From Escherichia coli (GTDB lineage Bacteria > Pseudomonadota > Gammaproteobacteria > Enterobacterales > Enterobacteriaceae), in NCBI RefSeq assembly GCF_017348835.2, contig NZ_CP071375.1: a DNA stretch of 64,000 nucleotides; one strand, written 5' to 3'. The translations under genes were made by a program, and so were the position numbers. Positions 43,578 through 55,976 of this stretch are shown here, in pieces. Numbering within the stretch: the stretch's first letter is position 1; the number at the start of each line of letters is the position of its first letter. The notes under the pieces are model-generated. The model saw only the letters and a list, made by a program, of their open reading frames with translations. It was not told the DNA's origin and ran no database searches.

Positions 43578-44939
43578 TCAGAAGAACAGTGACGGATCGC
43601 CCGCCCGTTTGGTCAGGCGACCGTTTGCCATAATGCCCATGCTTTCCAGCCAGCGTTCAAACTCCGGTGACGGGCGCAGGTTGAGTAACTGACGCACAGT
43701 GGCGGTATCGTGGAATGCGGTGGTCTGGTAATTGAGCATGATGTCATCACCCAGCGGCATCCCCATGATGTAGTTGCAGCCTGCGGTGGCGAGCAGGATC
43801 ATCAGGTTTTCGTTGAGGTTCTGGTCAGCGTCAGCGTGGTTGGTGTAACAGCAGTCACAGCCCATAGAGATGCCGCTCAGCTTGCCCATAAAGTGATCTT
43901 CTAAGCCCGCACGAATAATCTGGCGGTCATTGTAGAGATACTCCGGCCCAATAAAGCCGACCACGGTGTTGACGATAAACGGATCGTAATGACGCGCCAG
44001 CCCGTAGTTACGCGCTTCCATGGTCACCTGGTCTGCGCCGTAGTTGGCACCCGCCGACAGCGCCGAACCTTGCCCGGTTTCGAAGTAGAGGCAGTTTTCC
44101 CCGGCGATACGGTTGAACTCTGCACCCACTGCGCGCGCTTCGTCGAGCATCGCCAGTTCCACGCCAAACTCTTTCAGCCCTTTTTCACTGCCACAGATAC
44201 TCTGGAAAATCAGCCCGCCTGGTGCGCCACGACGAATCGCTTCGATCTGGGTGGTGACGTGCGCCAGTACGCAGCCCTGAGTTGGGATGTTGAATTTGTC
44301 GATCACGCCATAGATGGTGTCCAGCACGCGGCTTAAGTTTTCCACGTCGTCAGTTACCGGGTTGACGCCGATCACCGCATCGCCCACCCCGAAGGAAAGC
44401 CCTTCGTAGATTTGCGCGGCGATACTTTGCACGTCGTCACGGGTGTCATTTGGCTGCAAACGGGCGCTAAAGGTGCCCGGAATACCGATGGTGGTATTGG
44501 CCTTTTTGATTACCGGCATTTTCTTCGCGCCGTAGATCAGGTCCGCGTTGGAGCAAATCTTCGCTACCGCCGCGACCACTTCCGAGGTCAGCCCTTTGCG
44601 GGTAAAGGCAATGTCGTCCACGCTGGTTTCATCGCTCAGCACATACTCACGCAGTTCGCTGATGCTCCAGTTTTTAATCTGGTTGTAGGCCGTTTCGTTA
44701 ACATCGTCCTGAATCAGCCGCGTCACGCAGTCATCTTCATAGGCAATCACCGGATTATTGCGGATGTCCGCTACGGTCATTTCCGACAACACCTGCTTTG
44801 CTGCCACGCGCTCCTGTGAGCTTGCCGCTGCAACGCCCGCCAGCACATCCCCCGAACGCAGTTCGTTGGCTTTAGCCAGCACCTCTTTTACATCCTTAAA
44901 CTGATATACATTGCCGAACAATGTGGTCTTTAGTTTCAT
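43578..44939 (-). CDS. eutB: ethanolamine ammonia-lyase large subunit
   Basis: ORF trimmed to MKLKTTLFGNVYQFKDVKEV... start (ATG complement 44937-44939), 453 aa. Confidence 0.93.
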   Translation of the reverse strand: MKLKTTLFGNVYQFKDVKEVLAKANELRSGDVLAGVAAASSQERVAAKQVLSEMTVADIRNNPVIAYEDDCVTRLIQDDVNETAYNQIKNWSISELREYVLSDETSVDDIAFTRKGLTSEVVAAVAKICSNADLIYGAKKMPVIKKANTTIGIPGTFSARLQPNDTRDDVQSIAAQIYEGLSFGVGDAVIGVNPVTDDVENLSRVLDTIYGVIDKFNIPTQGCVLAHVTTQIEAIRRGAPGGLIFQSICGSEKGLKEFGVELAMLDEARAVGAEFNRIAGENCLYFETGQGSALSAGANYGADQVTMEARNYGLARHYDPFIVNTVVGFIGPEYLYNDRQIIRAGLEDHFMGKLSGISMGCDCCYTNHADADQNLNENLMILLATAGCNYIMGMPLGDDIMLNYQTTAFHDTATVRQLLNLRPSPEFERWLESMGIMANGRLTKRAGDPSLFF

Positions 44940-45127
44940 AAGTCGTTCCCTCAGGAAGAAGTGATGAGTGACATTTTTCACAGCCTTCAAACAATTCTAT
45001 TTCATCGTTAACCCTTGTCCTGTAAGGTAATTACCTTAGTACGCCCGCTATTCATCCTGCCGAACGCAACCGAACGCGCCGGATACATGAGCGGGGTTAT
45101 CGAGTCGTTAGATCGAGGTATCCGGTT

Positions 45128-46333
45128 TTGAGCAAGACACCACTGACAGCAAAGGCCATAGAGGCCGCACAACCGCAGGACAAGCCCTATAAACTCACCG
45201 ATTCACAGACACCTGGCCTGTTTTTGCTGGTCCATCCCAACGGCAGCAAATACTGGCGATTCCGGTATTGGATAGACAAGAAGGAGCGGTTACAGGCTAT
45301 TGGGGTGTATCCGCTGATTAGCCTCAAGGAAGCCCGCAAACGCGCCACAGAGAGCCGTTTACTGATAGCCCAGGGAATTGACCCAATGGATTTGGCACGC
45401 AAGGAGAAAGCCATTGATGCTCTTAATGCTATCGCCAGTTTTAAAGCTGTAGCAGAAGACTGGATGGCTACCAAGGTGAGCGGATGGAGTGAGAGCTATA
45501 CAAAGCAGGTCAGATCGGCACTAGAGAAAGATGTTTACCCCGTGCTAGGTAAGCGGTCGATAGTGGATATAACGGCCCGTGACGTGCTGGCGTTACTACA
45601 GAAAAAGGAGCGCACCGCACCGGAACAAGCCAGGAAATTACGCCAGCGTATCGGGGAGATCTTCAAATTTGCCGTTATCACTGAACTGGTTAACCGGAAT
45701 CCGGTTGCAGATCTGGATACGGCACTGAAAGCCAGACGCCCAGGCCATAACGCGTGGATACCGATTAATGAAATTCCGGCCTTCTACAAAGCCCTTGAGA
45801 GAGCTGGGAGCGTTCAGATTCAGACGGCAATACTTTTGCTCATCCTCACAGCTTTGAGGACGGCAGAATTGCGCCTGATGCGCTGGGAATGGGTAGATCT
45901 GCAATCGGCAACAATCACATTGCCCGCTGAAGTCATGAAGGCCCGCCGACCGCATGTTGTCCCGCTATCCCGGCAGGCGGTCGAGCTATTACAGGACCAG
46001 TTTACCCGCAGCGGATACAGTGCTTTCGTCTTTCCTGGCCGATTCATGGACAAGCCACTTTCAGCCAGTGCCATCCTTAAAGCCCTGGAGCGTATCGGAT
46101 ACAAGTCGATAGCCACAGGCCACGGCTGGCGGACCACCTTTTCAACGGCGCTTAATGAGTCCGGCAGGTACTCACCAGACTGGATCGAAATCCAACTGGC
46201 CCACGTTCCGAAAGGCGTGCGCGGTGTTTATAACCAGGCGGCCTACCTGAAGCAACGACGGGCCATGATGCAGGATTATAGCGACTGTATTGATTCAATA
46301 CTGGCTGGTGACGGTAATCCACTTGAACCGTGA
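45128..46333 (+). CDS. intZ: P4-type tyrosine integrase
   Basis: 401-aa ORF (TTG start in the ORF track); N-terminal arm-binding-type domain (DKPYKLTDSQTPGLFLLVHPNGSKYWRFRYW), catalytic region with HGWR and terminal ...GVYNQAAYLKQRRAMMQ tyrosine motif. The symbol is assigned by position only. Confidence 0.85.
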   Translation: MSKTPLTAKAIEAAQPQDKPYKLTDSQTPGLFLLVHPNGSKYWRFRYWIDKKERLQAIGVYPLISLKEARKRATESRLLIAQGIDPMDLARKEKAIDALNAIASFKAVAEDWMATKVSGWSESYTKQVRSALEKDVYPVLGKRSIVDITARDVLALLQKKERTAPEQARKLRQRIGEIFKFAVITELVNRNPVADLDTALKARRPGHNAWIPINEIPAFYKALERAGSVQIQTAILLLILTALRTAELRLMRWEWVDLQSATITLPAEVMKARRPHVVPLSRQAVELLQDQFTRSGYSAFVFPGRFMDKPLSASAILKALERIGYKSIATGHGWRTTFSTALNESGRYSPDWIEIQLAHVPKGVRGVYNQAAYLKQRRAMMQDYSDCIDSILAGDGNPLEP

Positions 46334-46884
46334 ACTATAAGGCCGGGTTTATACTCAATATCGACGGTTGAAGCGCTCAAAAAACAACCGTGACAACCGT
46401 CACAAATATGCAATGTCAATGATCTGAATCAATAAATTGCCAATTCTTCGTTTCCACTTTCGAATGAAAGCAAGATGCAGAAAAATAAATCACCATGAAA
46501 TCATGTACTTATTAATTTTGACCAAATGGTCCAAAATATCCTCGGTGAATCCATGCTTGCCACAGCCAGATGATTAATATTTAACCCATGACTTTCGAAT
46601 GAAAGTAAATTGATAAAAAAGTCAGTGTACACTAACTAAATCGAATATTTTTTGCGCTATGTTTGAATGATAATTGAGCAAAACTTTCGCAAGGTGTGAC
46701 GATGTGAGTAATTAATTTTAACTCTACAATAAACCCATCCCGACAGGGATGGTACCTGGAGCGGAGCGAGAGGGACCATCCCCCTGTTTTTAGTCTTTTG
46801 AAGTTAGTTTTTTAAGGGATTAAATAATTTTGCCTCAAATGAGACCACACCATACAAGGCCAAAAACAATCAGTATTGCGTGGA

Positions 46885-47400
46885 TCAGGCTGGTTTTTTA
46901 ACTATATACCCCGTATGCCAAGGATTCTGATCGCGCGGCATCGGGTCCGCCTTGATAGACTCATAAAACTTATCAGCCATCTCAGCCACAAACTGTACAG
47001 AGGATTCGAACTCAGCGTTTTTGTGTGCGGGAGGAAACCAGAAGTCTAACACGCCAGCATTTCTATTTTTACATACAGCGTATATAAGATAAGCATCAGA
47101 TGTAGGGGTAACTTTTTCGAAACCACCGGGACCATAACGACCAGTAGACCAGTCATCCCAGCATTGTTCTGTCCCGCTATAGCCGTACTGATTGGTATAA
47201 AGACCAATATTTACATGGACTTTACGTAAGTGGATAGGATATACACACGGGGGTTTATGGAAAAGAGTATCCTTTCCAAAATCAGGATGATGTCCATATC
47301 TCCAATGATAAATAAACGAATCCTTAAAGCTCTTTAATTCATCGTTTGTTTTAAACTTATTATCACTGTAGACCTTACCAATAAATTCATTCTGGACCAT
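46885..47400 (-). CDS. YafO-like toxin-family protein (putative toxin of a two-gene module)
   Basis: 171-aa ORF from ATG (complement 47398-47400); motifs DFGKDTLF, PIHLRKVHVNIG, SDAYLIYAVCK, FWFPPAHKNAE and VAEMADKF line up with YafO motifs as I recall them (FGRDALY, HIHL, EAHLVYCQG, KPEPHKLA, MAEAF). Confidence 0.5.
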   Translation of the reverse strand: MVQNEFIGKVYSDNKFKTNDELKSFKDSFIYHWRYGHHPDFGKDTLFHKPPCVYPIHLRKVHVNIGLYTNQYGYSGTEQCWDDWSTGRYGPGGFEKVTPTSDAYLIYAVCKNRNAGVLDFWFPPAHKNAEFESSVQFVAEMADKFYESIKADPMPRDQNPWHTGYIVKKPA

Positions 47401-47734
47401 CAAAGCTTACACTCTTTAAGCGTTCTTCTCGTGAATCGAATAAATCTTTTGATAAATCACACGCTTGTGTGAACGTCATTTTTTTTACTCGTGGTACAGC
47501 CATAGGCGAGGCCGCATTCATCACTTTGTTTTCTTCGTGATCGAGAGTAGCAGTGTAGCGAAACATGACACTTTTACCGCGCACCAACTGGTATCCTAGT
47601 CGATACGCTAACGCGTCAAGATGCGTCAGACGATTTGTTTTACGCAAGCCAGTCATAGCTTTTGGCTTACGAGTGCGCACAGAAAGGGATTTCCCTTCTC
47701 GCTTAGTCGCAAACAAAGTAACTATTTTTGACAT
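47387..47734 (-). CDS. small basic protein, putative partner/antitoxin of the downstream toxin-like gene
   Basis: 115-aa ORF from ATG (complement 47732-47734) with GGAGAT RBS; stop lies 10 bp before the downstream gene start; Lys/Arg-rich N-terminus. Confidence 0.45.
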   Translation of the reverse strand: MSKIVTLFATKREGKSLSVRTRKPKAMTGLRKTNRLTHLDALAYRLGYQLVRGKSVMFRYTATLDHEENKVMNAASPMAVPRVKKMTFTQACDLSKDLFDSREERLKSVSFDGPE

Positions 47735-48706
47735 GGTATCTCCTGACATCAATCTGCTAAGGCCATTGTGCCTTGTTTGAATAGTAAACTATTCGCCCAA
47801 TCTACACCAGTGATTTTCTTGACGCCAATAGTAAAGGCAGCATTGCCCACCACAGGCAGACAATGAGACTTCAGATAGCGCACCTTCTATCGCGCACGCG
47901 CTCAATAAAACCAACGACACCGCCATCCTGCCTGACCGATGTTTTTAACCAGCGTATACAGAGAAACAGACAACAGCATGAAATCAGCGTATATCCAGGT
48001 GCAGACGGCACTATCACACAACGCACAGCAGGCTGAGGTGAACACTCAAGCAACTTTATCCCCGCCACCGACCACCGCAAACTATCATGACCGTGCCAAA
48101 TTCAAAAGGAATGGCCCATATAACGCGATGAACACACATAAGCGCTACACTTGCTTACCTGAAAACTTCACAGCGTCACAGCGCGTTTTAGACACGTTAA
48201 AATTAATGAGATTTCATTAAATTTTCACCAGACACCGGAACAAGCCTATAAATCAAAAATGAATTACCGACATGCGCCGCTGGCGTTCACAGGAAGAATC
48301 AATAACTTAGGCCAATGGCGAAAGTTAAACAAAATCAAGAACTTGCAGAAATGCAGGATGAAGCAGCCGATGTGCCCCGTTGGATTTTACCAGAAGAATC
48401 AACAAGTTAGACTCGGTGATTTCACCGACTCCTGCCGGACTACTGACCAGATCGAACCATTCCCCAAATTTGGGGAGAGCAAACCACACGCAGATCCTGC
48501 CAGGCTATTTCATCCCACCGCATCACGTATTTGCACACTTCCCCGCTGACGTGCTCATTTTGATAACGAGTTACCCGCTAGCCCTTGCCACATCACCATT
48601 TGTCGCGCTTTGACTAAATTAGCGACGTGCCTGTTATAGCGATACGCTAGTTATGCAGAAAGCGCGACATATCCAGCAACCATGCACCCTACAGAGGAAT
48701 TGAATC

Positions 48707-49159
48707 ATGCGAGACATAGACTGGTCAGCTATCCCTTTCGATGATTTACCGCCCTGGCATCTGGACTGGGACGTAGACCAACGCGAAAACGCGACATATC
48801 CAGCAACCACCAGCATTACAGCGATGCGCCCCGTAAAGCCTAAGAAATACCAGGCAACCGACCTGATAGCTCACCTCAAAGCTATTGGCGGCGTATTTAC
48901 CGGAAGCAAAGACACGCTTGCACATGAAGTATGGCCCCGGAAGACGCCAGCGGGTCGAACCGTTTTACGCTTACTGACCGAACTGTCAGACAACGGCGAC
49001 GCTGTAGTGATTAACCGTGGTCGTTGTGGCGTGGAAGTTATTCTGACGCCGAAGAACAGGGCACAGACGCCTGAATTAAGCGCACCCAAGCAAATGCATA
49101 GCCAAAAATTAAGTCCAGCAGAACGCGTTATATCGCTTTTAAATGGCATCGGATTTTAA
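48707..49159 (+). CDS. hypothetical island protein
   Basis: 150-aa ORF with GAGGA RBS 8 nt upstream of ATG; no recognisable family. Confidence 0.5.
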   Translation: MRDIDWSAIPFDDLPPWHLDWDVDQRENATYPATTSITAMRPVKPKKYQATDLIAHLKAIGGVFTGSKDTLAHEVWPRKTPAGRTVLRLLTELSDNGDAVVINRGRCGVEVILTPKNRAQTPELSAPKQMHSQKLSPAERVISLLNGIGF

Positions 49160-49185
49160 TTAATTTTGATGTGGTAATTGCAGGC

Positions 49186-49212
49186 AAAAAAATCCCGCCG
49201 GAGAAAGCGGGG
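49186..49212 (-). terminator. rho-independent terminator oriented for minus-strand transcripts
   Basis: Minus strand reads CCCCGCtttctccgGCGGGattttttt (on plus strand the A-run precedes the hairpin). Confidence 0.55.
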
Positions 49213-49446
49213 AAGTGAAATCAATCGTTGTAGTTATAGATCACATTTTGGAGTTGAGGATGGCTAATCCTCGCTAATATTATCGCGCCGTTATGTGATG
49301 GGCGCAATTATTTCTTACTAATTAAAAGTTTTGTAAATATTACAGAATATCCCTTTTCACTATATGGTAAAAGATGTGAAACAGGGACATGAGGAATATA
49401 ATATTAAGTATCAACAGTAATGTTGGTCTTTAATTTCATTCAGGGC

Positions 49447-49489
49447 GCGGTGAGGGTTTTCTCCATATTTTTCCTCACCGCTACTTTTT
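49447..49489 (+). promoter_or_regulatory. terminator/attenuator-like hairpin in the alpA leader
   Basis: GCGGTGAGG-17 nt loop-CCTCACCGC followed by tacttttt, immediately upstream of the alpA RBS. Confidence 0.45.
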
Positions 49490-49501
49490 CGAGGTGAGAA
49501 C

Positions 49502-49693
49502 ATGAATGATAGCGAATTAATGACGGTGAACGAGGTAGCCGCTTTATTCGGCGTTACCCGTCGGACAATATTCCGGTGGATGAACAAGATTAAAGGCTGG
49601 CCCGTCCCGGTCAGTCCGATTGGCTCAAGAATTAAGTTTATCCGATCTGAGATTTTGGAATTCTATAAAAACAAAGGCGCTCGCCACCAATGA
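49502..49693 (+). CDS. alpA: AlpA-family phage/island transcriptional regulator (excision control)
   Basis: 63-aa ORF MTVNEVAALFGVTRRTIFRWMNKIKGWPVPVSPIGSRIKFIRSEILEF: typical AlpA HTH signature; RBS GAGGTGAG. Confidence 0.8.
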   Translation: MNDSELMTVNEVAALFGVTRRTIFRWMNKIKGWPVPVSPIGSRIKFIRSEILEFYKNKGARHQ

Positions 49694-49832
49694 AAACAGC
49701 TACTGAGATTATCAAATAACCTATTGATTTAAAAAGCTAGCTACCGCAATTTCTGAAGGAATAGGCAGCATGAAAATCAAAGCAAACACAATTAAAGAAA
49801 TAACATCAATCAAAGTAAAAGGAGCAGATGCC

Positions 49833-50096
49833 ATGCATTCATTAGATAGTTATTTTCAGCGCACGACAGCCCCTAAATCAGCCGCCCAGGAACGCCGTGA
49901 GGAATTCCAGGAAAAAGTGATGCGTTCTGCTGATTATATTGCGGACAAGTTCGCGGAAACGGTTCGGCCACTTGTTGATGAAGTAGCTGATAAACTTCAG
50001 TCTGAAATGCCGGAAGACATGGAAGGCACTGCAAAGGCGCGACTCCTTTTTGAATTAAGTCGTCGTTTCGGCGTGTCAATAAGCACTTTTAAATAA
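49833..50096 (+). CDS. hypothetical small acidic protein
   Basis: 87-aa ORF from ATG 49833 with AAAGGAG RBS 8 nt upstream. Confidence 0.5.
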   Translation: MHSLDSYFQRTTAPKSAAQERREEFQEKVMRSADYIADKFAETVRPLVDEVADKLQSEMPEDMEGTAKARLLFELSRRFGVSISTFK

Positions 50097-50113
50097 TCGG
50101 AGGAGGAAAGACA

Positions 50114-50656
50114 ATGGACGCATTTGATGTACTGACAAACAAAGGCGATGAACTGGTAGCACAGCGTGATAAAACCGCCAACGAAGGGGAACGCGCACTG
50201 TTAAATAAGCAGATTAAAGCGATCCGTATGGCCCAGTTTAAATTAATCAGCAATGAAGTTATCGAAAAAATTAAACCGCAGATCCCACAAATCGTTGCTG
50301 ACGCTATTAAAGCCGCCGGACTGGAGAAACGCATTGCCGGGCTGAAAACGAACGCAGAGAAAATGGAGATGCACAAACAGAGCGGTGCTCCGACTCCGGA
50401 TGAGTACTTCTCACCGGATGCTGAGTTTATGGCGCAGGTTGAGGAACGTCTGGGTAGCTGTCTCACCGAGGAACAGTGTCGCTATTTTGATGGAGTGGAT
50501 AGTTCGGCAGGTATTGACCTGAACTCGTATTTCGGTCGTGAAATTGAGCATTTTGATGCCGCCCCGTCTATGCCGGAGCCAGAACCAGAAATGGCCGCCG
50601 ATCCTGAAGCTGAGCAACGGAAACGCGTATTCAATGCGATAGGGATTCGGTACTGA
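50114..50656 (+). CDS. hypothetical protein (phage-associated)
   Basis: 180-aa ORF with strong GGAGGAGG RBS; acidic C-terminus. Confidence 0.55.
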   Translation: MDAFDVLTNKGDELVAQRDKTANEGERALLNKQIKAIRMAQFKLISNEVIEKIKPQIPQIVADAIKAAGLEKRIAGLKTNAEKMEMHKQSGAPTPDEYFSPDAEFMAQVEERLGSCLTEEQCRYFDGVDSSAGIDLNSYFGREIEHFDAAPSMPEPEPEMAADPEAEQRKRVFNAIGIRY

Positions 50657-50664
50657 TCGGATAA

Positions 50665-50688
50665 AAGAAAGCCGGGAATTACCCCGGC
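50665..50688 (-). terminator. hairpin terminator, T-tract on the minus strand
   Basis: GCCGGGaattacCCCGGC preceded on plus strand by ataaaagaaa (minus strand: hairpin then tttcttttat). Confidence 0.45.
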
Positions 50689-50707
50689 TGACTTAACAAT
50701 GTGACCA

Positions 50708-51082
50708 ATGAACAAATCGGACAAGACAAACAGGATAAGCAGTCTCGAAACAATGTTCGGGAACTATATTAGCACAAGTCCGGAGAAAATCATCATGTTG
50801 GCACTACGCATCATGCAGGGCATCGCTAAGACCCTCGCAGAACATGTCTTAGACCTGAAACATTCGCCACTGAGCAAACAGGCCATGAAGCGCCAAACGC
50901 TTCGTCTGTGGGCTGAATATTCGCTTGGAACTATCAATAAAATCATCGACATGAAATCGGGGCCGAGCAACCAGAGCGCGGAGGAAATGGAGTTCATCAG
51001 GCGTTTAATTCTCATTCGCAGAGACATTCATAGCCAGTTACACAGCGTGGGAATCGATATTAATGATGGGACGGGCGATTAA
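50708..51082 (+). CDS. hypothetical protein
   Basis: 124-aa ORF; weak RBS. Confidence 0.45.
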   Translation: MNKSDKTNRISSLETMFGNYISTSPEKIIMLALRIMQGIAKTLAEHVLDLKHSPLSKQAMKRQTLRLWAEYSLGTINKIIDMKSGPSNQSAEEMEFIRRLILIRRDIHSQLHSVGIDINDGTGD

Positions 51083-51120
51083 TTTTCGGACAAGTACTAT
51101 GCGCGCGCGAGGAGCTGAAC

Positions 51121-51351
51121 ATGAAGCAAGATATTGCAGACAGGCTGGAGATACTCGAAGGCCAGCGGGCAGAAGCGAAACAACTACGTAAGCAGGCCAG
51201 AAGAGCGCACAGGAACTACGAAGCAGAATCACTGACCGCTTTCATCAACTTCACAAACCGTTGCATCCTGGAGTGTTACAGGGAGGATGCAGAAAACTGG
51301 CTGGATTCATTGCCAGAACAGACTCTGCATGAACTGAACGGCGACCAGTAA
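51121..51351 (+). CDS. hypothetical small protein
   Basis: 76-aa ORF with GAGGAG RBS 6 nt upstream. Confidence 0.5.
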   Translation: MKQDIADRLEILEGQRAEAKQLRKQARRAHRNYEAESLTAFINFTNRCILECYREDAENWLDSLPEQTLHELNGDQ

Positions 51352-51638
51352 ATAAATCCAGTACGTTTCCCGCAGTGCGCATAACGTACATTATGTGAAA
51401 AACGATATGGATATATATCAGTCTGACTTCAATGAAGAAAACGGACTTCCAGCATCAACCACAAAGAAGTATGGCTAATGCAGCTTTATAAGCCATTGAT
51501 TCTATTAAACGATATTTTTTGTGATTGGTTGAAGCAAACCAAAACACGATGCCACTGAAGCGTTAATAAACTGTTTCAATGTGAAATTATCAGAGTAAAG
51601 AACAATTTGGAGGGTCCGCAAACGCGGATAACAATATC

Positions 51639-53819
51639 ATGAGTGGAAATCTCGGGACCATATACTACGAGGTCGATGCCCGCACTGGGAAACTTCTTAT
51701 CGCGCAACAGCAGGCGGAAGAGGCGTTCGATCGCATTGAACGAGGAGCGCGGAAGGCTGATAGCGGCGTCAAAAAGTTAAATACGCAGATGACTAAAACA
51801 TCAGCCGCAGTCAAAACCAACCTTTCCCCGGCAATCCGTAACGCATCATACCAGATCGCAGACCTTGCCACTCAATTGCAGATGGGCGGTAATGCGCTTC
51901 AGGCGTTCGCTGTGCAGGGTGCGCAGTTATTAGCTGGCTTTGGCACGATGGGCGCGGTAGCTGGCGCGGTGCTGGCTATCGCTGGCGCTATGGGTGGAAG
52001 CCTGGCACAAGGCGCTGATAGTGCAGCCGGATCGGTTGAGTATCTGGACAAGGCGATCACCAAACTGAACGAGGTCATAGCTGTAAATGAACAGGGCGTG
52101 ACGGTGATGAGTGATAGTTACGCCAGACTTTCTAAGGTTAACGCTGAAGTAGCGAAACAGATGCGGAACATGGCTGAAATTCAGGCAATTGCAGCACTGC
52201 GTGACCTGAAAGAACAGGCAAGCCAGGCACAGGGGGAAATGTCGTCATTCTGGCGCAGCTTGCAGGGTGGTAAAGCTGACGCAGCAGCAGCAGCACAGGC
52301 ACTTGATGATCTTGGAATCACAACCAACGACTACAAAGAGGCGATAGCCATACTGAACGCCAATCAGCCGGATACACAGGCGCAAATGGCAACGCTAGCT
52401 AAGTCCGTGATGTACATAGGCGAGGAATACAACCTGACAAACCAGCAAGCCTACGAGTTCATCCGAGCACTAAATAGGGCCGCGACAACGAGAACGCCGG
52501 AAGCCATGCAGGAACTATCGGGCTTCATGCAGGTATTGCTACAGGACACCGAAAACGGTAACGAGGCATTCCGTGAACTGGCTATCAAATTCGTTGATGC
52601 ACAAACCAAAGGCGCAATGCTGGAAGACCAACTAAACCGACTGAAAGGCGCTATCAGTGACGCAGCCACAGAAGCCAGAAACGCCAATTTTACCACTATG
52701 CTCAACACCGTCGCCGCACGCCTGGCAGCCATTGAGCAAGGTTGGGAGGCAGGCGTTAGGATGCAGATGAAAGCCCAGGGCTACACTGAAGAGCAGATCG
52801 ATGAATATGTGAACATGGAAACGGCGTACCGTGATGCAAAAGCCGCTTTGGACGAGAAGAATAAGGCCGACCGTGAAGCTATTGCGCTATCCAAACGCCA
52901 GGCCGCAGAAGCAGCCCGCAAGGCAAAACAGGAAGAAGCTGAAGCACAACGCAAGGCCAAACAGTTAGCCGCGCAGAAGGAGCAGGCAGGACGCTTTACG
53001 CAGCAAGTAATGACGGAATACCTGACGACCGTAGATCCGGCAACAGGCAAGGCGTTTAACCCTGCCGCACAAGTAGAAATGCAGGAGCAGCAGAAGAAAG
53101 CGGCGCTGGATAAATACAGACAGTTGGGCGTCCTGGATGAACAGCAGTACCAGAACACGCTAACCGCCATCCAGAAAACCGCGTCAATGCGCCGCCAGCA
53201 AATCATCAAAGACGAGGCCGACACGTTATTCAACAATCAGCAACAGTTGATCGGCACATTTGGCGATTTCTTCGGTGAACTGTCTGGAGTCATAGCAGAC
53301 GGTGCAGGTGAGCAAAACGCGGCATATCAAGCGCTATTTGCTGTGCAGAAGGGTTTTGTATTGGCATCAGCAGCTTTAAGCCTTCAGAAAGCGCTTGCTG
53401 AGGCAAACGCCTTGCCTTTCCCGGCTAATCTTCCGGCCTATGCGCAAGCTATGTCAGCAGGCACGCAGATCATTTCAGCTATTCGTGGAATAGCTTTCGG
53501 TGGCGGACGCTACAACGGCGGCGCGGTTGGTGCTGGCAACCTGTACCGCGTGGGTGAACACGGTAAGCCTGAGATATTCAAGGCGAACAATGGCAGCCAG
53601 TACATGATCCCAGGTGATAACGGTCGCGTGATAAGTAATCGTGACATTGGCGGCGGTGGCGGCGTAACAATCAACAGCCCGATCACCATTAACACTACGA
53701 ATGGCTTCAGTGATGAAGACTCAAGGCGTCTTGAGGAAGCGATGAAGCGCGTAGCTATGGGCGTTTGCAGGCAGGAGTCAACCAGACCGGGAGGAATGTT
53801 AGCCCCGCGCCGTCGTTAA
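51639..53819 (+). CDS. phage tail tape-measure-like protein
   Basis: 726-aa ORF: glycine/alanine-rich hydrophobic segment (LLAGFGTMGAVAGAVLAIAGAMGGSLAQGADSAAG), long A/Q/E/K-rich coiled-coil middle, C-terminal G-rich region with YRVGEHGKPE motif. Confidence 0.7.
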   Translation: MSGNLGTIYYEVDARTGKLLIAQQQAEEAFDRIERGARKADSGVKKLNTQMTKTSAAVKTNLSPAIRNASYQIADLATQLQMGGNALQAFAVQGAQLLAGFGTMGAVAGAVLAIAGAMGGSLAQGADSAAGSVEYLDKAITKLNEVIAVNEQGVTVMSDSYARLSKVNAEVAKQMRNMAEIQAIAALRDLKEQASQAQGEMSSFWRSLQGGKADAAAAAQALDDLGITTNDYKEAIAILNANQPDTQAQMATLAKSVMYIGEEYNLTNQQAYEFIRALNRAATTRTPEAMQELSGFMQVLLQDTENGNEAFRELAIKFVDAQTKGAMLEDQLNRLKGAISDAATEARNANFTTMLNTVAARLAAIEQGWEAGVRMQMKAQGYTEEQIDEYVNMETAYRDAKAALDEKNKADREAIALSKRQAAEAARKAKQEEAEAQRKAKQLAAQKEQAGRFTQQVMTEYLTTVDPATGKAFNPAAQVEMQEQQKKAALDKYRQLGVLDEQQYQNTLTAIQKTASMRRQQIIKDEADTLFNNQQQLIGTFGDFFGELSGVIADGAGEQNAAYQALFAVQKGFVLASAALSLQKALAEANALPFPANLPAYAQAMSAGTQIISAIRGIAFGGGRYNGGAVGAGNLYRVGEHGKPEIFKANNGSQYMIPGDNGRVISNRDIGGGGGVTINSPITINTTNGFSDEDSRRLEEAMKRVAMGVCRQESTRPGGMLAPRRR

Positions 53820-54317
53820 CCAAATCCCACGCCAGGGGGATAGACTGGCGGCCTTTCAATTCCGTTGAAACGACGGAATCAAACACCCCGATTCAGGGTA
53901 TTTAAACGTCGCGTTTCACGACATTTATCTAAGTCATTGATTTATATTGTAACTCATAATTGAGTTGCGCCGACCATCCCGCCACAAACGCTCCTACGCA
54001 AAAATTCCCTCACAATTACCCTGCCAATTTTCCAGATTTCACGTATACGCGCCTATATCCCCGCCACCGGATACACGCCCGCTTATACCGGATACTTTTA
54101 TGCCATCATTATTAAATCCATTAATAATCATCAAACCATAATTAGCACAACTTATAATCGAACAAAAAACACACAACATTGATAATGATTTTTTCTGGTT
54201 ATACTTATCTAAAAAAGTGGTATGGGAAGTAACTTATTGTTTTGTAATTACAAATTTATTGCGTGGTCAGATGAACAGACTTGCGCACCTCCCGAAAAAC
54301 ACGCGAAAATCGAAGTG

Positions 54318-54427
54318 TTCTTTCTTTTTTTGTTTTTTATTTTTTTATTTTCTCTTTTTCTTCTCTTTCCGGTTCTCTTCTTTTTCTGGTTTTGGTTTTT
54401 TCCTTTTTTATTTTTATTCTTTCTTCA
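54318..54427. repeat. polypyrimidine (T/C) low-complexity tract
   Basis: ~110 bp almost exclusively T and C on the plus strand (tctttctttttttgttttttatttttttattttctc...). Confidence 0.9.
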
Positions 54428-54572
54428 GGGTTGTGATCAAACACACCAAAACATTTTCGCCACAAAAGCGTTAATTTCATCCTGCCAGACCATTCACTTT
54501 CACCGGATACACAGCCGGATATAATCCCGCTAACACCCAGCCACCCAGCATCACGCCTGATAACTACCGTAT

Positions 54573-55976
54573 TCAGGAAGGAAATGCGAGTGATTTCACC
54601 GTCACCGGCACAACCGATCCGCCAAAAAGAGGCGTACCAATGTCGATATAGTCCCCCGCGCGGACAATCACTTCGTCAATGACTGCCAACGGGAGTTGTT
54701 GTAGCTGTGGGCGCAACAACATGCCCAGAGCTTTACCAAAGTCCTGCCCGGCCACCACCAGCAGGGGATGCGGATTCGGAAAACGCGCGACGAAATCGAC
54801 CAACGCGTTGATGACCGTCAGTACCGCGGCGTAACGCACAGGCAGCGAGGCGGGAAGCGCCAGCACGTACGCGTCAGTTTTGGGATCAAGATCCAGCTGA
54901 ATCAGCGCCTGTTGCCAGGCACTCACCAGATCCGTTTCATCAATCGGGATCGCCACCGGCAAATTGCGCAGCGGCAGTTGTACGCCCTCCAGCCAGATTG
55001 TGCTGCCAGAGAGCGAAAGGGTATGTGCACCCGCGCCAATCACCGTGGCGCGTACGGTTTGCGCCGGAAACTGCACGTTCATCTCACGCAGGCGCGGATG
55101 GTCATGCAGCGCCGTTGCCAGAAGCGGGCCAATATCGGCAAAACAGAACGGGTCGGCGGGCTGGTGGCGATAACATTCGCCCACGCCGCCAGAAAGCGTA
55201 ATGATTTCGGGCGTAACACCTGCGGGCAGCAAACCGGTTTGCATTAATGCCTGCGCGAGCGGCGAAAGCGTTCCGTCAATCACTTCGACAATCAGCTCTG
55301 CCATCCGCCAGGTAACCTGCACCAGCTGCGCGCCGGTCAGCGAACGGGCGTCGGTGCCTGCGCCGAAGCACTCATCCACAATCATCTGCCCCGGTTTATG
55401 AGCGTAAACCACGCGCCCCTGGCTGTCGGTTTCCAGCAGGCGACCACCGACGTTGAGGCAGGCAGTGCCGCTGATTTTTCCGGCATCGAACAGGGCGTAG
55501 TTCGCGGTGCCACCGCCGATGTCGATATTCAGTACCCGACACAGCCGTTGTTCAGAAAGGGTTTGCGCCCCGGCACCGTGACCGGCGATCACGGATTCGA
55601 GGTGCGGCCCGGCGCTGGCGACGACAAAATCGCCCAGCGACTGAGAGAGCGCCATCACCGCCGGGCGAGCATTGCGGGTTTTCGCGCTTTCACCGGTGAT
55701 GATGATGGCACCAGAATCAACGCTTTCCGGCGCAATGCCCGCAGCCTGATATTGCTCTAAAATCAGCGATTTCAGTTCCGCTTCTTTTAAACCACCCTGT
55801 TTATCGACAGGGGTAAAGAACACCGGGCTTTGCCAGCTAATTTCGCGTTTGATGAATTCGTAGCGCGGCACCTGCGACACCGCCGCACGGTTAACCAGTT
55901 CCAGGTGGGAGAAAATCACCTGGGTGGTGGTGGTGCCGATATCGATACCGACGCTCAGTAGCTGGCGAGTGTTCAC
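54573..55976 (-). CDS. eutA: ethanolamine ammonia-lyase reactivating factor
   Basis: 467-aa ORF ending ...VTVKSLAFPS; operon context. Confidence 0.9.
   Translation of the reverse strand: MNTRQLLSVGIDIGTTTTQVIFSHLELVNRAAVSQVPRYEFIKREISWQSPVFFTPVDKQGGLKEAELKSLILEQYQAAGIAPESVDSGAIIITGESAKTRNARPAVMALSQSLGDFVVASAGPHLESVIAGHGAGAQTLSEQRLCRVLNIDIGGGTANYALFDAGKISGTACLNVGGRLLETDSQGRVVYAHKPGQMIVDECFGAGTDARSLTGAQLVQVTWRMAELIVEVIDGTLSPLAQALMQTGLLPAGVTPEIITLSGGVGECYRHQPADPFCFADIGPLLATALHDHPRLREMNVQFPAQTVRATVIGAGAHTLSLSGSTIWLEGVQLPLRNLPVAIPIDETDLVSAWQQALIQLDLDPKTDAYVLALPASLPVRYAAVLTVINALVDFVARFPNPHPLLVVAGQDFGKALGMLLRPQLQQLPLAVIDEVIVRAGDYIDIGTPLFGGSVVPVTVKSLAFPS

Follow-up and report, generated by a model that had tools for sequence, protein, structure and literature searches.

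What occupies the DNA between a toxin-like gene cassette and the first convincing plus-strand gene of a genomic island in Escherichia coli? The initial annotation of the 64,000-nt stretch of E. coli DNA analyzed here (the window) had noted ~0.9 kb with only weak open reading frames (ORFs) at this place, and had suggested that it holds divergent promoters, possibly together with decayed gene remnants or a non-coding RNA. We addressed the question by comparing this gap with eleven relatives and by searching it for genes, RNAs, promoters, and repeated motifs. The gap is ordinary in kind: it is a mosaic intergenic region with spurious ORFs, and it contains no hidden gene and no detectable structured RNA. 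It probably serves for control and spacing, without coding function, in an integrative island of the CPZ-55 family, and it is composed of four separately inherited modules. What the gap may do beyond supplying the flanking promoters we can only infer.

The gap and its island

The gap is housed in a 9.6-kb CPZ-55-like island between eutB and eutA, the position that the cryptic prophage CPZ-55 occupies in strain K-12. In a genome with an empty site, eutB and eutA are spaced by 11 nt, and the crossover core read from that genome, TCAGGAAG, is duplicated in the window at 44951–44958 and 54573–54580. The DNA around the gap is 100% identical to that of E. coli PE164, and matches were confined to E. 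coli. All backbone genes of the island point in one direction. Features by which phage-inducible islands (PICIs) are recognized were found here: co-directional int and alpA genes, a specific attachment site, and a size within ~8–15 kb. A scan against Pfam and PHROGs that covered the island proteins other than ORF124 and ORF76 detected no primase-replicase gene or replication domain.

The claim that ~0.9 kb here is devoid of a real gene was confirmed, and the gap proved slightly wider, at 972 nt. The antitoxin start that bounds it on the left is preceded by AGGAGA, and PGAP annotates no CDS in the gap at the 100% identical locus L001. The three ORFs singled out by the initial annotation (47939–48220 and 48259–48549 on the plus strand, and 47871–48080 on the minus strand) are present in the mechanical ORF list. 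The atypical composition was also borne out: the plus strand of the gap is A- and C-rich, with a GC skew of -0.18 and an AT skew of +0.18, and in 600-nt windows the GC skew falls to -0.20, the 5th percentile of the 64 kb being -0.155. An unannotated gap of 0.9–1.8 kb was found at the same position in every relative examined, indicating that it is a feature of the family and no local accident.

Comparison with the eleven relatives resolved the gap into a four-part mosaic (modules A, B, C, and E; Table 1), with breakpoints of shared homology at 47914/47923 and near 48520. The ~600-nt middle is also present in relatives that lack both the toxin cassette and ORF150; it belongs to the island backbone, independent of either neighbor. 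The proposal of divergent promoters holds in part. The edges of the gap do resemble regions that control the neighboring genes: 180 nt on the left were inherited with the cassette, and ~190 nt on the right with ORF150. The arrangement is not compact, however, since the putative promoter regions are ~800 nt apart. O157-type relatives carry a gene for a 75-aa HTH regulator in this slot, which agrees with the earlier suggestion that it is a regulatory position. A blastn search of the gap against 50,697 phage records revealed no similarity, and phage cos sequences of the lambda and P2/P4 types had no match in it.

Table 1. Positions in the window of the island genes, gap modules, and sequence elements discussed in the text
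Feature	Position	Strand	Description
intZ	45128–46333	+	First island gene
YafO-like toxin and partner cassette	46885–47734	-	Between intZ and the gap
Gap	47735–48706		972 nt, bounded by the starts of the antitoxin (47734, -) and of ORF150 (48707, +)
Module A	47735–47914	-	Upstream region of the antitoxin/YafO-like toxin cassette
Perfect palindrome GAATAGT-AA-ACTATTC	47780–47795		In module A; assigned as operator by eye
Candidate -10, TAGATT	47803–47798	-	By eye; uncalled by the consensus scan
Candidate -35, TTGGCG	47827–47822	-	By eye; uncalled by the consensus scan
Module B	47915–48240	+	Family-specific non-coding block of ~320 nt, A/C-rich
ATCCTGCCNGAC copy	47925–47936	+	Poorly or partly conserved in relatives
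ORF93	47939–48220	+	Open frame within module B; no selection as a gene
Sigma-70-like site GTCACA-17-TAAAAT	48175–48203	rightward	9/12 matches; sole scan call in the gap; weak
Module C	48241–48520		Repeat patch; holds the only clearly constrained piece of the gap
Tandem duplication	48267–48410	+	100-nt period; two 44-nt copies, 75% alike
Inverted copy of TTCATCCTGC, the longer form of the end motif	48353–48362	-	10/10
ATCCTGCCNGAC copy	48429–48440	+	One mismatch
Palindrome CCCCAAATTTGGGG	48462–48475		14 nt, perfect; compensatory changes in relatives
Invariant box CACRCAGATCCTGCCAGGCTATTYCATCC	48484–48519	+	35 nt; best conserved piece of the gap
ATCCTGCCNGAC copy	48494–48505	+	Inside the invariant box
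Module E	48520–48706	+	Leader/promoter region of ORF150
AAAGCGCGACATAT-type repeats	48598–48611, 48659–48672, 48786–48799		First copy inverted; third copy inside ORF150
ORF150	48707–49159	+	First real plus-strand gene after the gap
AlpA/HTH_17 gene	49502–49693		Followed by small ORFs
726-aa tape-measure-like gene			Last island gene; PHROG 1538, E 2.8e-103

CPZ-55-type islands, represented here by the window (44951–54580) and by L002 to L009 and L022 to L025, form a mosaic family. Their genes are ordered intZ, a variable cargo slot, the long non-coding tract, AlpA or HNH, small ORFs, and a tape-measure-like gene of ~730 aa, which in some relatives is preceded by a small-terminase-like gene. The cargo includes the YafO-like toxin cassette, yffL, and HTH proteins, and L003 also carries an AIPR abortive-infection gene further to the right. 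No replicase is found in the family. A CPZ-55-type island looks like a phage-dependent element, and a full-text literature search that paired CPZ-55 with "satellite" found no paper.

Several relatives depart from the eutB/eutA setting or from the usual gene content. L006 (CP057168.1) is a 9,003-bp circular "plasmid" from a pig-farm E. coli that has module B, the D block, HTH and HNH genes, and the small ORFs of the family, with a serine-recombinase-type gene replacing intZ; it may be an excised or an autonomously maintained relative. L004 (near glcC/yghO) and L008 (near ychJ/purU) carry the backbone or a remnant of it at sites other than eutB/eutA, L004 with an intZ-like integrase and an identical toxin cassette and L008 as an island remnant adjoining IS elements. 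In a comparison of the window with L007, intZ shows 84% identity and differs at 34% of third positions, whereas alpA, ORF108, and ORF180 (within 49502–50656) are 99% identical. This sharp difference in divergence shows a recent exchange of the right half of the island.

Coding potential and RNA structure

As the initial annotation had remarked, the three ORFs lack Shine-Dalgarno (SD) sequences: by eye, no GGAG- or AGGA-like motif was seen within 20 nt upstream of any of their starts. Substitutions relative to other islands were distributed over the three codon positions as 10/13/12 and 20/16/15 in ORF93, 16/13/14 in ORF96, and 14/13/11 in ORF77, and ORF96 and ORF77 have single-nucleotide indels in L004 and L002. 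Six indel-free copies of ORF93 gave a pooled pN/pS of 0.79, against 0.81 and 1.03 in the off-frames, and their variable columns numbered 27, 19, and 24 by codon position. Such a flat pattern is valid for any frame on either strand, and the minus-strand ORF (ORF69-) is thus covered as well. Both positive controls differed from this pattern. ORF150 displayed an excess of third-position changes (35/36/71 and 32/26/56), and its indels, of 6 and 3 nt, preserve the frame; positions 1 and 2 of intZ diverge by 0.05–0.07 versus ~0.3 at 4-fold sites.

Neither Pfam nor PHROGs has a family for ORF93, ORF96, or ORF77, and tblastn of ORF93 against phages returned nothing. A word-index search of 5.8 billion proteins with ORF93 gave 14 matches of 60–155 aa, of which those with a named source came from E. 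coli or from one virome MAG. Profile searching of 1.84 billion representatives yielded 11 matches; the nine strong ones are short, partial sequences of 50–200 aa, and only fragments of the same locus were recovered. Clear protein homology with conserved synteny, which the initial annotation had named as the finding that would contradict it, did not emerge: the "homologs" all derive from translating this one DNA block, and their ragged ends have the look of erratic gene calls on a non-coding stretch.

ORF93 is extremely unlikely to be a genuine orphan gene whose protein evolves fast. Five to six of the eleven relatives keep this frame open to the same stop, the fourteen database proteins correspond to it, and in L007 a deletion and an insertion 11 nt apart restore the frame, but five of the eleven relatives have frameshifts or stops in it, its pN/pS is no different in level from that of the off-frames, it lacks an SD sequence, and the database lengths are ragged. 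Long open frames are also explained by composition, since by our own estimate the strand has only ~20% T and stops are rare, so that frames of this type are often open. The earlier suggestion of a decayed gene remnant is possible for ORF93, but the sampled copies have diverged by ~15% with no sign of protein-level selection.

Module B, in which ORF93 lies, was detected at 79–92% identity in ~200 of 5,426 complete E. coli genomes. Every locus that was fetched proved to be a CPZ-55-type island or a remnant of one, and one more match was on a 9,003-bp circular record. When 100,044 species genomes were scanned with an 18-base invariant pattern, only chance matches in unrelated phyla were found, and module B is thus apparently restricted to E. 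coli. Two pattern scans of IMG/VR gave one chance match only and hence no evidence of virome packaging. O157-type islands have the 75-aa HTH gene in place of module B. The K-12 CPZ-55 lacks module B, which makes K-12 transcriptome data inapplicable to it. The P4-type iteron GGTGAACA is present once in module B, and this was judged to be a chance match.

Variable columns in module B are randomly placed, and its longest invariant run is 9, compared with 9.1 expected; no discrete constrained site is therefore evident. Its divergence, 0.11–0.18, is about half of the 4-fold divergence of intZ in most pairs, which could reflect some constraint that these tests do not localize or a different recombination history. 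Module B probably drifts neutrally, as a long-dead gene or as a spacer whose bulk properties matter, and it would separate the variable cargo slot on the integrase side from the conserved rightward operon (ORF150/alpA onwards).

The suggestion of a non-coding RNA was not supported for a structured RNA by Rfam, folding, or covariation. Rfam, including the C4/P4 CI immunity RNA, had no match at E ≤ 1 in 44000–52000; at E ≤ 10, the sole match to the gap within 47700–49520 was an irrelevant lncRNA (E 9.3), and an Rfam scan of a relative found nothing in its gap. Module B folds no better than shuffled sequences on either strand (z of +0.56 on the plus strand and +0.28 on the minus strand), and RNAalifold on an 11-sequence alignment gave a covariation term of +0.82, with compensatory changes in 2 of 31 pairs. 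Intrinsic terminators were limited in the gap to two weak, overlapping minus-strand calls near 47836–47851. These results make it very unlikely that 47760–48700 encodes a structured or regulatory RNA, such as an sRNA or an immunity RNA of the P4 type, even though the non-coding tract is long and conserved and its small palindrome has undergone compensatory changes, one of them giving a U-G pair that can form only on the plus strand. Esr41 was considered and set aside as a different locus.

The part of the whole non-coding tract that is most widely conserved, in 11 of 11 relatives, lies just outside this interval, at 49184–49306 on the minus strand. Along this strand, a -10-like GATAAT that is invariant comes first, followed by a 5' hairpin in which two pairs show compensatory changes, then by ~42 unpaired nucleotides that include a conserved AUAACUACAACGAU, and last by an invariant GC hairpin and U7–9, ending near 49184. 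On that strand Rfam gave only sub-threshold matches, to AgvB (22.8 bits, in L009) and to GcvB (18.4 bits, in the window). Its layout makes this element a candidate Hfq-type sRNA of ~90 nt that diverges from alpA, and it is a stronger candidate than any sequence within the gap. On the plus strand, its first hairpin lies between the -35 and the -10 of the predicted alpA promoter, and it could instead be an operator.

Putative flanking control regions and the island-end motif

Consensus scanning, which found two sigma-70-like sites in the region compared with 3.7 in shuffled sequences, gave no statistical support for any promoter in the gap. The only site called within the gap lies at the 3' end of module B, and its hexamers are largely kept in relatives. 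At the left edge, module A is 96–98% identical in O157-type islands and in other islands with the same cassette, and homology ends at 47914 in both. Its palindrome sits between a plausible -10 and the SD sequence of the antitoxin, as is typical of autoregulated toxin-antitoxin promoters. Module A thus probably comprises the promoter of the cassette and a putative palindromic operator. The likeness to autoregulated type II toxin-antitoxin promoters extends to the perfect 7-2-7 form of the palindrome and to the inheritance of the region with the cassette. The difference lies in the proteins: the toxin scores 21.5 bits against Pfam YafO_toxin, below the curated cut-off of 25, and its partner belongs to no known family.

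At the right edge, module E was inherited with ORF150, with 82–87% identity in L002 and L004. The inverted copy and the first direct copy of the AAAGCGCGACATAT-type repeat surround a TTGACT hexamer, and ORF150 has an SD sequence, AGGA, 8 nt before its ATG. Module E would thus contain the ORF150 promoter, which was identified by eye, flanked by three operator-like repeats of 14 nt. ORF150 itself matches no known family in Pfam or PHROGs, a PDB sequence search was empty, and its single-sequence AlphaFold model (pLDDT 40) was unusable.

Module C lies between module B and module E. Its tandem duplication is present in relatives as a single copy or in a different order. The palindrome CCCCAAATTTGGGG is paired in 90.5% of cells across the relatives, with two pairs changed on both sides, a score that was reached by 7 of 500 shuffles. 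The invariant box that follows is nearly invariant in seven of seven relatives, and in 161 genomes it occurs at a median of one place per genome and at two at most. It is partly duplicated in L023 and L008, and just past it the relatives switch between two alternative downstream modules. Three relatives (L009, L024, and L025) lack the box altogether, indicating that it is not essential to the family.

The box shares a motif with the ends of the island. TTCATCCTGCC occurs ~90 nt inside each end, at 45051 and 54476, and its refined form, ATCCTGCCNGAC, is found on both arms, at 45054 and 54479, the left-arm copy being conserved in 9 of 12 relatives. There are six matches to ATCCTGCCNGAC in the 64 kb versus 0.92 expected, a count that is partly circular because the consensus was refined on the copies that it counts. 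Five of the six are in the island, all on the plus strand and all in non-coding DNA: the two arm copies and the three gap copies listed in Table 1. The arm-derived 8-mer ATCCTGCC is also present twice in the 972 nt of the gap, and 9- to 11-mers are common to the gap and the island ends more often than to the gap and random segments (p 0.002–0.01).

A motif on both arms is, in lambda- and P4-type systems, an integrase arm site or an excisionase site. The motif described here resembles the arm-type integrase and Vis/AlpA sites of such systems, as generally known, in that it is short and directly repeated on both sides of the core, ~90 nt away, and in that the integrase-side copy overlaps the region upstream of int. 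It differs in the three extra copies of the putative site 2.9–3.5 kb inside the element, which are foreign to the classical attP layout; arm-type sites at such a distance from the core are unusual. Measured from the left core, these copies lie outside an attachment region of a few hundred nucleotides.

As the same ATCCTGCCNGAC motif lies ~90 nt inside each end, the ~60-nt unit of palindrome and box (48460–48520) is most likely a docking site at which a recombination or regulatory protein encoded by the island would bind. By analogy with the arm sites, the protein would be IntZ, through its arm-binding domain, or an AlpA/Vis-type protein. Docking at this unit would link the condition of the island ends to transcription into the operon. 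AlpA-type proteins also regulate transcription (PMC6092414).

The copies of the end motif could also be read as relics of an internal attachment site in an accretion scar, the gap then being the fused ends of two tandem-integrated elements. The coincidence of module boundaries with motif copies and a 14-mer, TATCCCCGCCACCG, common to module B and the right-end non-coding DNA are in keeping with this reading, but no conserved core TCAGGAAG is present (CAGGAAGAA at 48290 is unconserved in relatives), the spacing, at 365 and 139 nt, differs from the ~90 nt at the true ends, and the homology of L008 runs ~200 nt past the box. We therefore rejected tandem accretion or an internal attachment site as the main explanation, and consider a scar of this kind highly improbable. 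The docking site remains our preferred reading of the 48460–48520 unit.

Two other places in the non-coding DNA of the island carry repeats. An inverted repeat, CCGGATAC-N25-GTATCCGG, at 45079–45119, just upstream of the TTG start of intZ, is kept in all relatives and is a second candidate site for a recombination protein; more copies of CCGGATAC occur at 54066, 54088, 54504, and 54517. The right end of the island (53820–54572) comprises ~750 nt in which no convincing gene is apparent. Nowhere else in the 64 kb is the composition so extreme (G 12.5%, GC skew -0.33), and this end contains a pyrimidine tract of ~100 nt (54320–54425), CCGGATAC repeats, and the 14-mer shared with module B.

The untranslated tract and known systems

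Bulk composition suggests one further role, to which we give a small but appreciable chance. The untranslated, C-rich, G-poor, and unstructured leader in the middle of the gap would act as a Rho-dependent insulator, at which Rho terminates read-through from the integrase and cargo side, and the alpA operon would then be expressed only from its own promoter or when a helper phage provides antitermination. Windows with an excess of C over G (at least 10%) cover 61% of the gap, versus 20% of the 64 kb and 7% of the coding DNA of the island, and 67% of the other long non-coding stretch of the island, at its right end, where G is 12.5%. The gap shows no translation and no excess of folding, the backbone genes are co-directional, and the non-homologous segments that replace this DNA in L009 and L024 are also C-rich. 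The likeness to rut regions of untranslated leaders and of horizontally acquired DNA is that of an untranslated, unstructured RNA with C exceeding G over several hundred nucleotides. Unlike in rut regions, however, YC dimers are not enriched (0.116 in the gap versus 0.124 in the window), and the evidence is compositional only. The skew is shared by descent in most relatives, which are thus not independent samples, and with the upstream cargo of this window oriented the other way, intZ would be the only source of read-through.

As a whole, the arrangement appears closest to the region upstream of alpA in Gram-negative PICIs, in which helper-dependent, AlpA-autoactivated induction acts (PMC6092414). 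Like the alpA control region of EcCICFT073-type PICIs (PMC6092414), it belongs to an element with co-directional integrase and AlpA/HTH_17 genes, no evident repressor gene, and cargo adjoining the integrase, and it forms a non-coding region upstream of the alpA operon; HNH and small-terminase-like genes in relatives suggest a dependence on phage. In contrast to EcCICFT073-type PICIs, no primase-replicase gene was found in this island, which ends with its 726-aa tape-measure-like gene, and the non-coding tract is far longer, at ~1 kb or more.

A more specific proposal, which we regard as improbable, is that the ~1–1.8 kb of untranslated DNA upstream of alpA/HNH (module B, the palindrome-box unit, and the sRNA-like element at 49184–49273) is the helper-sensing switch of an unrecognized, CPZ-55-type family of E. 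coli phage satellites, marked by HNH, small-terminase-like, and tape-measure-like genes. A Rho-sensitive leader, Int/AlpA docking, and the divergent Hfq-type sRNA would together decide whether the operon fires.

Our reading of the gap as non-coding control and spacer DNA has direct consequences for annotation. Three spurious ORFs are removed, which PGAP and other pipelines call erratically and which have given rise to 14 ragged-end database "proteins." The boundaries of the island and its modular structure are now fixed, and the gap marks where the variable cargo slot of CPZ-55-type islands stops and the conserved backbone starts. The places to look for control of these widespread islands are the constrained unit at 48460–48520 and the neighboring sRNA-like element. 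If CPZ-55-type islands are phage satellites, the tract that includes the gap would be their likely induction switch.
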